From a phage, in sequence record PZ386973.1: a DNA stretch of 64,000 nt; one strand, written 5' to 3'. Under the pieces are notes generated by a model, which was not told the origin of the DNA, ran no database searches, and was given only the letters and a program-made list of their open reading frames with translations. Shown here in pieces: positions 61,891-64,000 of this stretch (positions within the stretch are counted from its first letter, which is position 1; each line of letters opens with the position of its first letter). The translations under genes and the position numbers were made by a program.

Positions 61891-62073
61891 ATGCCAGTAT
61901 CTAAAAATGTTCGTAAAAATGGTAAGAAAGCTACTCGTAATCTGGGTATCCGTCGTATGGCTGAACGTCAATCAGGTGTCCAGAAAATCTTTGATCTGCT
62001 AAATCGTGCTAATCCTAAAATTGATAACAGTAACGATACTGTTCTACGCACTCTGCTGGCAATTGGTCTGTAA
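61891..62073 (+). CDS. Hypothetical small basic protein
   Basis: 60-aa ORF with own promoter 61822..61850 and AAAGGA RBS. Confidence 0.45.
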   Translation: MPVSKNVRKNGKKATRNLGIRRMAERQSGVQKIFDLLNRANPKIDNSNDTVLRTLLAIGL

Positions 62074-62126
62074 TAGACCAAATTTAAACAAATTCAAATC
62101 TCAAACCTCATATAAGGAAGCAAATA

Positions 62127-62765
62127 ATGACTACTCGTATTTCTAAAACTCGCGCTCTGGCAACTATCAAATCTCTGGAAGCTAAAATCCGTAAAGCTAC
62201 TGAACAGCAGCTTCTGATCGCTGTTGGTGAAGGTAAGGATAAAAATAAGGTTGTAGTTGGCGCTGCAATCGAAGTAGACGATCTGTCTGCTCGTATTAAG
62301 GCAGATTTCCAATCTCTCCTGGATATGATGTCCCAGCGTGACCGTATCAAAGCTGCTCTGATTAAGAGCAATGCGGAAACAGTAGTTGAGATTGGTTCTC
62401 GTAAGATGACTGTTGCGGAAGCAATTGAAGCTAAACGTTCTATGGAGCTTAAAGCTCAGCTGCTGGCTAACATGCGTAAGCAGTTCCATGCCGCAACGGT
62501 TAAGTTTAATACCCAGAAAGCACAGTTTGATGCTAAATATGAGCGTTTGCAGGATAGCATGGCTACCCGCGATAAGAAAACTTCCGAAGATGAAGTTAAA
62601 ATGCAGCTCAACCTGCTGGAACTCAAGAATACCCCATTCTTGATTGATCCGCTGGAACTGGAGAAGCTGATTAAGCAGCATGACGAGGAATATCAGGACT
62701 TTGCAACAAATGTTGACTTTGTTCTGTCCGAGTCTAACGCCTCTACTTTCATTGAAGTAGAGTAA
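62127..62765 (+). CDS. Hypothetical protein (coiled-coil rich)
   Basis: 212-aa ORF with AAGGAAG RBS; host-like codon bias. Confidence 0.55.
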   Translation: MTTRISKTRALATIKSLEAKIRKATEQQLLIAVGEGKDKNKVVVGAAIEVDDLSARIKADFQSLLDMMSQRDRIKAALIKSNAETVVEIGSRKMTVAEAIEAKRSMELKAQLLANMRKQFHAATVKFNTQKAQFDAKYERLQDSMATRDKKTSEDEVKMQLNLLELKNTPFLIDPLELEKLIKQHDEEYQDFATNVDFVLSESNASTFIEVE

Positions 62766-63147
62766 TGATTTGAAAGCTAGTAAATCGGTAGACGAAAGCC
62801 CAAGCATCTTACCTCGCAGCAGCGGTTGAAATACGAGGTTAAATAAGACCGCTGACCATACTATAAAGTATAATCTATTGGAGATTATGTTTATTACACC
62901 AGCCTTTTAAGCTGACACGTAAGAACAAAGCGTCGTTGATATTACCGACACAACTTCAAAGATCAACATTTAAGTATGAAAGCTGAAAAGTTTAAAGAAC
63001 TCAAACTTCTAAACTTCTAAAGCTAAAAGATGCAAAGTATTCGTTGATGATTCAAACCCTAGATCAAAGGTACATGGCTCATAAGATATGGCCTGTGGCG
63101 CCTCTAGGCTGTTTATCGGTTTACTAGTTTCACAATTTAAAAATGTA

Positions 63148-63176
63148 TTTGCTAATTTATTAAGTTATCTGTATAA
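63148..63176 (+). promoter_or_regulatory. T5-type early promoter upstream of HNH_3 endonuclease gene
   Basis: TTGCTA - 17 bp - TATAAT. Confidence 0.6.
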
Positions 63177-63206
63177 TATATTTTTAAATTGATGAAACGA
63201 GGCTAT

Positions 63207-64000
63207 TATGGGTAAATTACAAAAACAAATACTACCATATATAGATTATATTCGAGAAATTATAGAGTATAATCCTTATACCGGTAAATTATTTTATAAG
63301 CCTAATAAATACAAGAATAAAACTTGGCACACCCTATATGCTGGGAGAGAAATATGTAGTAAGAACTCTGATGGGTACATCAGGGTTAGTTTGCTATTAG
63401 ATAATAAACCCACAATTATTTATGGACACCGAATAGCGTGGTTGCTCCATTATGGTGAAGAGCCGCCTTATATGATCGACCATATAAATACCATACCGTG
63501 GGATAACAGAATTATTAATCTAAGAGAGACAAATTTTAAGTTAAATAGGATTAATACTAGTAAAACCGTAGGTGTAGAACTCCTCCCCGAGGGTTTTGTG
63601 TATAGCATTACATTAGGTGGAAAGTTTTTCGTATCTCCTGGCTTCACCACTTTCGAACAAGCTAAAGTAGAAAGAGAAAAACTAGTAAATGGTTTATGTA
63701 ATGCAGAAATTGGGAAGCAGACCAATATTCTAATAGACGATGTTAGAGATTTACCTGAAATGTCCATTATTTGTCGTACAGTTATAGGTGCGCTGGAACT
63801 ATCAGATGTGTTTAGTTTTACAGGATCCTATTTATTTATGGACTCAGATTTAGGAGATCCAGAGGTACAAGGAAAAGATTTATTAGATCATATACTATCA
63901 TTAGGTCAAAGACCCCTAAAAGTGATTCTAGTAACATCTAATCCTGTTGACGCAGAGTACATGAGAGGTACTCTTACGTCTTATGGATACCGAGAAAATC
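63207..64000 (+). CDS. HNH_3-family endonuclease (homing/nicking type), 3'-partial; ORF runs off window end
   Basis: Not in supplied ORF track (no stop within window); translation from ATG 63207 gives GHRIAWLLHYGEEPPYMIDHINTIPWDNRIINLRETNFKLN; own promoter 63148..63176. Confidence 0.68.

Follow-up and report, generated by a model that had tools for sequence, protein, structure and literature searches.

The phage DNA analysed here (PZ386973.1; one strand of 64,000 nucleotides, hereafter the window) belongs to a T5-like genome (Tequintavirus). It ends, at its 3' edge, within an open reading frame (ORF) that very probably codes for a mobile, I-HmuI-like HNH-AP2 homing endonuclease fused in frame with the phage cREC gene, whose expression signals it borrows. 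The fusion ORF (63208..64000, + strand) starts at the ATG of positions 63208-63210 and stays open through base 64000, over 264 codons without a stop. Relatives at 96-98% identity have 9 further codons followed by a stop, giving a protein of 273 amino acids of which 264 are coded in the window. In the full-length product Met1 is followed by 170 residues of HNH block and 102 residues of cREC domain. The original prediction for this DNA had correctly noticed an HNH_3 ORF that is incomplete at the window end, but placed its start one base off, at 63207. It was also right that the ORF is absent from the mechanical ORF list, because ORFs running off the end of the source sequence are skipped there.

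The insertion is delimited by comparison with phages that lack it. A megablast search with window positions 62000-64000 matched 441 phage records: 27 span the whole query, whereas the match to the other 414 breaks off after query position 1211. This base corresponds to window position 63210, where the ATG ends. In these empty phages, T5 included, the same promoter, ribosome binding site (RBS) and ATG lead into a cREC protein of 105 amino acids. The inserted homing-endonuclease block (63211..63720, + strand; aa 2-171) sits between codons 1 and 2 of the cREC gene in 29 records and is missing from about 94% of the T5-like records, which carry the stand-alone cREC alone.

The cREC gene attached to the block is a diverged allele, termed here B-type to distinguish it from the T5-type allele of empty phages. 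In a collection of 50,697 phage records, ~446 of them with the cREC locus, tblastn finds B-type cREC with at least 90% identity in 29 records and with ~50% identity in 417. The HNH block reaches ≥90% identity in these 29 records and in no others (about 22 distinct phages after removal of RefSeq duplicates); all its other matches fall in the band below 60%, with ≤35% identity among the matches listed. Each record has a single place for cREC, and the fused copy is thus the only cREC of occupied phages. A scan of 1.84 billion protein cluster representatives gave one cluster only at E≤1e-30; the matches ranking next are HNH_3(-AP2) proteins of the usual kind and two cREC proteins that stand alone. 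PF20274 and PF13392 co-occur only in proteins P0001 and P0002 in the profile search, and nothing else in the databases searched has the HNH plus cREC architecture.

The catalytic core of the block (63424..63528, + strand; aa 73-107) matches Pfam HNH_3 (E 2e-11) with 43.6 bits, the cut-off being 24.8, and PHROG 99 (phrog_99, 'HNH endonuclease') covers aa 11-163 (E 1e-35). The core contains H74, D91, H92, N94, D99, N100 and N104. In an alignment of 66 homologues the residues expected of a beta-beta-alpha-metal active site are conserved: H92, the general-base His in the D-H motif, is invariant, while H74, D91, N94, D99, N100, N104 and N113 are conserved in ≥90%; all of them are present in the window protein. 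The HNH part has I-HmuI as its top structural match, at only ~20% sequence identity, and a fold similar to that of a solved member of the HNH_3/I-HmuI-like family, which belongs to His-Me finger group 2. The Pfam score and this nearest solved structure uphold the earlier reading of GHRIAWLLHYGEEPPYMIDHINTIPWDNRIINLRETNFKLN (aa 73-113) as an HNH_3 core of the homing or nicking type.

An AlphaFold (AF2) model built on the 66-sequence alignment (mean predicted local distance difference test score, pLDDT, of 80.6) is organized in three parts. The HNH part spans aa 1-117. It is followed at aa 123-170 by a three-stranded sheet (aa 123-142) and a long helix (aa 149-170), and then by an alpha/beta domain (aa 173-272) ahead of which lies a low-confidence linker (aa 164-169). 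The central part is a putative AP2-like DNA-binding module (63568..63717, + strand; aa ~121-170), as suggested by the model and by BLASTP, which aligns aa ~118-160 to the Pfam-AP2 region of the HNH-AP2 relative P0003. The nearest HNH-AP2 relatives of the block are 31-48% identical to it. Many of the closest HNH relatives, for example P0003, P0010, P0027 and P0028, are tandem duplications with two HNH_3(-AP2) units in 260-360 aa. Members of this HNH endonuclease family thus seem to be joined end to end and in frame quite commonly.

The carboxyl terminus of the fusion is a receiver-like cREC_REC domain (63721..64000, + strand), of which the window codes for aa 172-264 and the complete gene for aa 172-273. 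Pfam finds cREC_REC (PF20274) at aa 173-257 (E 7e-13) with 49.5 bits, the cut-off being 27, over profile positions 2-87 of 88, and the unnamed family phrog_1479 matches aa 170-262. The ~150 residues that follow the HNH core had been described as an extension not recognisable as a standard DNA-binding module. The strings quoted from them are present, with ILIDDVRDLPEM at aa 174-185 and KVILVTSNPVDAEYM at aa 238-252, both within the cREC part. Profiles and alignment, however, resolve the extension into the putative AP2-like module and, at aa 172-264, the phage's own cREC_REC gene fused in frame.

B-type cREC is a diverged allele of T5.084/T5p082, the stand-alone 105-aa cREC protein 'similar to KVP40.0304' that is coded by the empty T5-type allele (318 nt in AY692264). 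The two allele classes share ~49% of their amino acids and 63-65% of their nucleotides. The cREC part has a receiver (CheY-like) fold with a conserved acidic pocket formed by D177, D178, D212, D214, T243 and S244, all invariant in both classes. Activity of the cREC family on 2',3'-cyclic phosphate or cyclic ADP-ribose (cADPR) is a prediction only (PMC7824862, Iyer et al. 2021). A full HMMER scan recovered two stand-alone cREC proteins at 48-52% identity. When the cREC part was searched by itself against a word-indexed set of proteins, no candidates came back, which reflects a limit of the index and is not evidence of absence. NCBIfam has no family matching either allele, the PDB sequence search gave only marginal receiver-domain matches (E ~0.9), and a literature search on T5.084, T5p082 and PF20274 yielded nothing relevant.

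The signals for expression of the fusion are those of the cREC gene. A sigma-70-type early promoter (63149..63177, + strand; TTGCTA-17 nt-TATAAT, 10/12 matches in the promoter scan) has the same sequence in empty alleles, and the T5 record AY692264 has a putative promoter annotated at the equivalent place, upstream of T5p082. The Shine-Dalgarno sequence GAGG (63199..63202, + strand), 5 nt 5' of the ATG, is common to occupied and empty alleles; an RBS is annotated at the equivalent position in the Shivani record. The HNH block itself brings neither promoter nor RBS, start or stop and relies on the early promoter, RBS and ATG of cREC. A search at the junction for independent translation of cREC found no conserved in-frame ATG, GTG or TTG with a Shine-Dalgarno sequence, and the sole conserved ATG nearby, codon 185, is located 3' of the DD pair. 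For these reasons cREC is predicted to be produced solely as the carboxyl-terminal portion of the fusion.

A hairpin of 10 bp followed by a weak T-run is found at 63364-63387 (+ strand), inside the HNH coding part, and the Shivani record labels its counterpart (L011:1659-1678) a terminator. The hairpin might lower expression of the fusion, or it might have arisen by chance; it is treated as chance because the T-run is weak and the coding sequence is under selection. An Rfam scan of positions 62600-64000 gave nothing meaningful, its single match having an E of 0.95.

Fifteen alleles of the fusion were compared. The 13 full-length relatives in frame are exactly 822 nt long, and the window allele agrees with them throughout the 264 codons that it includes. 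In the HNH part the pairwise ratios of non-synonymous to synonymous substitution (dN/dS) are 0.04-0.31 and the variable sites are distributed as 18/10/50 over codon positions 1/2/3. The cREC part shows dN/dS ≤0.16 where substitutions are numerous and a distribution of 12/4/30; the value of 0.61 between the window and HildyBeyeler comes from 3 differences only. Comparison with the distant metagenomic contig DRR477421 finds synonymous sites saturated and a dN of 0.12-0.15. Strong purifying selection acts on both halves of the fusion. The eventuality that the complete ORF has a frameshift or premature stop does not hold, as 14 of the 15 alleles are in frame, and the pseudogene reading is rejected on the dN/dS values and frame conservation. 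The cREC domain is most likely still functional within the fusion since it is the only cREC copy, has no independent start and is under selection.

The sequences around the insertion bear signs of mobility. Occupied and empty alleles are 95-99.8% identical over the upstream 440 nt and 83-94% identical over the downstream 450 nt. The cassette is present in two genera, Tequintavirus and Epseptimavirus, with flanks typical of each genus. Its limits were traced with diagnostic single-nucleotide polymorphisms, defined as those that separate the empty members of the two genera. Upstream of the cassette, the Epseptimavirus phage bux has the variants of its own genus at 17 of 17 diagnostic sites, up to a site only ~10 nt away from the ATG, and Epseptimavirus-type variants resume 33 nt past the stop. 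Phage RN29 combines Epseptimavirus sequence upstream with a Tequintavirus-type tract of >700 nt downstream. The two patterns represent co-conversion tracts of differing length around a common core. Contig DRR477421 (L005) codes for a 273-aa fusion 77% identical to that of the window, while the proteins coded next to it share only 46-61% identity with the orthologues of T5-like phages; the cassette is therefore younger than its carrier lineages.

The block has the patchy and cassette-like distribution of a homing endonuclease. According to the homing explanation, the early promoter of cREC would drive transcription of the gene and the cREC RBS and ATG its translation, with read-through into cREC yielding one polypeptide of 273 aa. 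When an occupied and an empty phage infect together, the endonuclease would nick or cut the T5-type cREC of the empty one, while the 36%-diverged cREC allele linked to the endonuclease would presumably be immune. Recombinational repair would then copy the HNH block together with the linked B-type cREC into the recipient. The overall process would amount to intronless homing with co-conversion, in which the in-frame fusion lets the element inhabit a gene without destroying it. Cleavage, target site and super-Mendelian inheritance are inferred for the fusion protein by analogy with I-HmuI (PMC3017599) and with the intronless homing of T4 (reviewed in PMC2988022).

Several points weigh against this explanation. 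The Pfam AP2 model has no significant match on the window protein, and the target would be placed within the T5-type cREC allele from linkage and boundaries only. Neither the phage collection nor the scan of 1.84 billion protein cluster representatives yielded an unfused B-type cREC or a free-standing close copy of the HNH block; as no 'empty' B-type allele was met, the original insertion event and its exact boundaries are not reconstructable. One allele is disrupted: in vB_EcoS_HZ_ZJUN2 (PP216084.1, L007:2001-2824) a +2 frameshift at ORF nt 137, where a (GA)n run has slipped and gained one GA, splits an otherwise intact gene into two annotated ORFs, and could represent recent inactivation and decay or a sequencing error. 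The fusion is moreover conserved (77% of amino acids, equal length) beyond what a purely parasitic element needs, and its parts could cooperate.

Such cooperation is central to the view that the HNH-AP2 and cREC parts form a co-opted bifunctional protein, kept fused for the benefit of the phage, for example in anti-defence or nucleic-acid processing. The receiver-like phosphoesterase domain would gate the nuclease in one variant, and the DNA-binding part would retarget cREC in another. This is in line with the maintenance of length and frame across 25% nucleotide divergence, dS being saturated and dN low in both halves, with the absence of a stand-alone B-type cREC or close HNH relative from the 50,697 phage records and the protein representatives, and with the fused copy being the sole cREC gene of occupied phages. 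The patchy occurrence (29 of ~446 records), the spread across genera and the co-conversion tracts are nevertheless typical of selfish homing, and about 94% of the relatives thrive with cREC alone. The HNH-AP2 module, besides, lacks no part and has the typical make-up of homing endonucleases that are free-standing and 160-190 aa long, and in the AF2 model a low-confidence linker joins the two modules. We consider co-option unlikely; the selfish-element distribution and the complete, typical homing-endonuclease module argue that the fusion is mainly a mode of expression. The unique architecture, the lack of an unfused B-type cREC and the purifying selection over a long divergence leave room for a further view, in which the 273-aa protein is a new functional class. 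Either the cREC phosphoesterase would sense a cyclic phosphate or cADPR and gate the HNH nuclease, or the reverse, or a Hint-less element would free cREC by non-canonical cleavage. We hold this idea, with both its versions, to be quite improbable.

GenBank proposes yet another interpretation for phages HildyBeyeler and SelmaRatti, whose gene is named 'intein-containing hypothetical protein' with an intein at aa 3-171. Residues 3-171 would be spliced out after translation, leaving a cREC protein of ~104 aa. The BASEL paper called inteins from comparative alignments alone and counts one in its S5 table. The block is indeed an in-frame insertion relative to the gene of other phages, HNH_3 domains are present inside some inteins (PMC5714182), and Gln171-Thr172 forms the downstream junction in most alleles. 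The Pfam search, however, gave no match to a Hint profile, and no Hint fold is found among the structural matches listed. There is no space for a splicing domain because HNH-AP2 occupies aa 11-163 of the 170 inserted residues. An intein would have Hint blocks A, B, F and G around the endonuclease, a Cys or Ser (rarely Ala) as its first residue, and a final Asn or Gln ahead of Cys, Ser or Thr. The upstream junction, Gly2 followed by Lys or Arg3, lacks a nucleophile, the downstream one is Gln-Leu in DRR477421, and the insertion follows directly on Met1 instead of lying in a conserved active-site motif. Without Hint domain and splicing nucleophile the intein reading, to which we give very little credit, is rejected. 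Equally little credit is due to a role in making the single-strand interruptions that T5-type virion DNA carries at specific sequences, a link drawn by the original prediction. The closest solved structure, I-HmuI, belongs to a site-specific nicking enzyme, and an early promoter drives the gene. The genomic nicks were, however, defined in phage T5, whose own record (AY692264) has the empty 318-nt allele, like about 94% of the T5-like records; no further copy of the HNH block with more than 35% identity is listed for any phage record, all other matches being in the band below 60%. A gene missing from T5 cannot explain the T5 nicks, and this reading is rejected as well. The homing endonuclease fused to cREC is the preferred explanation.

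The surroundings of the cassette have features of their own. The ~380 nt that precede the cREC promoter (window 62766-63148) have no ORF of at least 60 aa, yet are 95-99.8% conserved across T5-like genera, and the T5 record places divergent putative promoters within this region. In Salmonella phage 1586 (PP438655.1), which has the fused cassette, a second, free-standing 'HNH endonuclease' ORF (L008:1895-2407) is inserted upstream of the cREC promoter, in this normally ORF-free region, where endonuclease genes seem to insert preferentially. Further upstream, positions 62127-62765 (+ strand) hold an ORF of 212 aa that is named 'tail fiber protein' in many relatives, though it lies in the early/tRNA region. 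AY692264 annotates on the same DNA the opposite-strand ORF T5p083 (L006:1393-2190), in conflict with the former annotation. The name 'tail fiber' is probably a propagated misnomer.

On the 3' side of the cassette, SelmaRatti (MZ501103.1) has a 'putative homing endonuclease' (L017:2796-3485) between the cell-wall hydrolase gene and a 56-aa ORF, which is absent from the other loci compared. The cell-wall hydrolase itself appears in EPS7 (NC_010583.1; L018:2015-2464) as two short 'endolysin' ORFs versus one ORF of 149 aa in relatives, a split likely due to a frameshift or sequencing error. Two genes 3' of the cassette, a YqeY/GatB-like gene occurs in two allele classes (L002:6731-7174, L019:2703-3137 and L018:2703-3146). 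Its copy in Kenya-K38 is 93% identical to that of EPS7 and 58% identical to that of DT57C, crossing genus boundaries. The gene is one more mosaic locus near the cassette.

The fusion gene is already in GenBank under other names; a literature search found no paper describing an HNH-AP2-cREC fusion. The present analysis corrects public annotations, since the gene named 'intein-containing protein' or plain 'HNH endonuclease' is also the only cREC gene of the phage, and it removes the fusion from the candidates for the T5 nicking enzyme. The occupied and empty alleles constitute a natural data set covering two genera, variable co-conversion tracts and culturable phages (HildyBeyeler and SelmaRatti, BASEL Bas33 and Bas34, respectively). 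They provide at the same time a handle on the cREC family, with two alleles ~50% apart that are exchanged in nature.

I-HmuI and I-BasI, both intron-encoded, are HNH nicking homing endonucleases of the Bacillus phages SPO1 and Bastille (PDB access code 1U3E). The nicking activity of I-HmuI is documented in PMC3017599. I-HmuI resides inside a self-splicing group I intron and has DNA-binding modules of the NUMOD/helix-turn-helix type, while the fusion has no intron, carries an AP2-like module and is joined to a host gene. HNH-AP2 homing endonucleases are abundant in phages, and free-standing ones were reportedly described by Magnani et al. in 2004. 'IPA-HNH' of ICP1 is a free-standing enzyme of this type (Barth et al. 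2023, PMC10448857), and the free-standing HNH enzymes F-TflI/II/IV of T5 were characterised by Akulenko et al. 2004, as cited in PMC5714182. The window block shares with free-standing HNH-AP2 enzymes the order of N-terminal region, HNH_3 and (in the block, putative) AP2 within ~160-190 aa, a patchy presence among close phages and a position at boundaries of genetic exchange. Their genes lie between other genes with their own start and stop, whereas the block has neither and exists solely as an amino-terminal fusion to cREC.

In the intronless homing of T4 SegF, SegG and MobE a free-standing endonuclease cuts the neighbouring gene of a rival phage and flanking markers are co-converted. Common to these systems and the fusion are the linkage of the endonuclease to a diverged, presumably resistant adjacent allele and a cassette-like transfer with variable co-conversion tracts. 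The T4 enzymes are coded by separate ORFs, while the window endonuclease shares its frame with the linked gene and its cleavage and exclusion would follow only by inference. HNH_3 endonuclease domains are also found in inteins such as those of GyrB and dCTP deaminase (group 22; PMC5714182). In both situations an in-frame endonuclease insertion keeps the host gene translatable; unlike those inteins, the block has no Hint domain or junction nucleophiles and the product is expected to stay fused. Its carboxyl-terminal 102 aa correspond to a full-length cREC as in the stand-alone proteins of PF20274 (T5.084/T5p082, KVP40.0304), with the DD / D / TS residues and the REC fold, but are ~49% identical to the T5-type allele, have no start of their own and exist solely as the C-terminus of a fusion. 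Homing endonucleases are known to live inside genes through introns, inteins, gene splitting and translational bypass. To be fused in frame at the N-terminus, stably and under selection, with borrowed promoter, RBS and start, represents a further, rarely documented lifestyle, and its unusual point is an endonuclease stably fused to the gene that travels with it, as neither intron nor intein.
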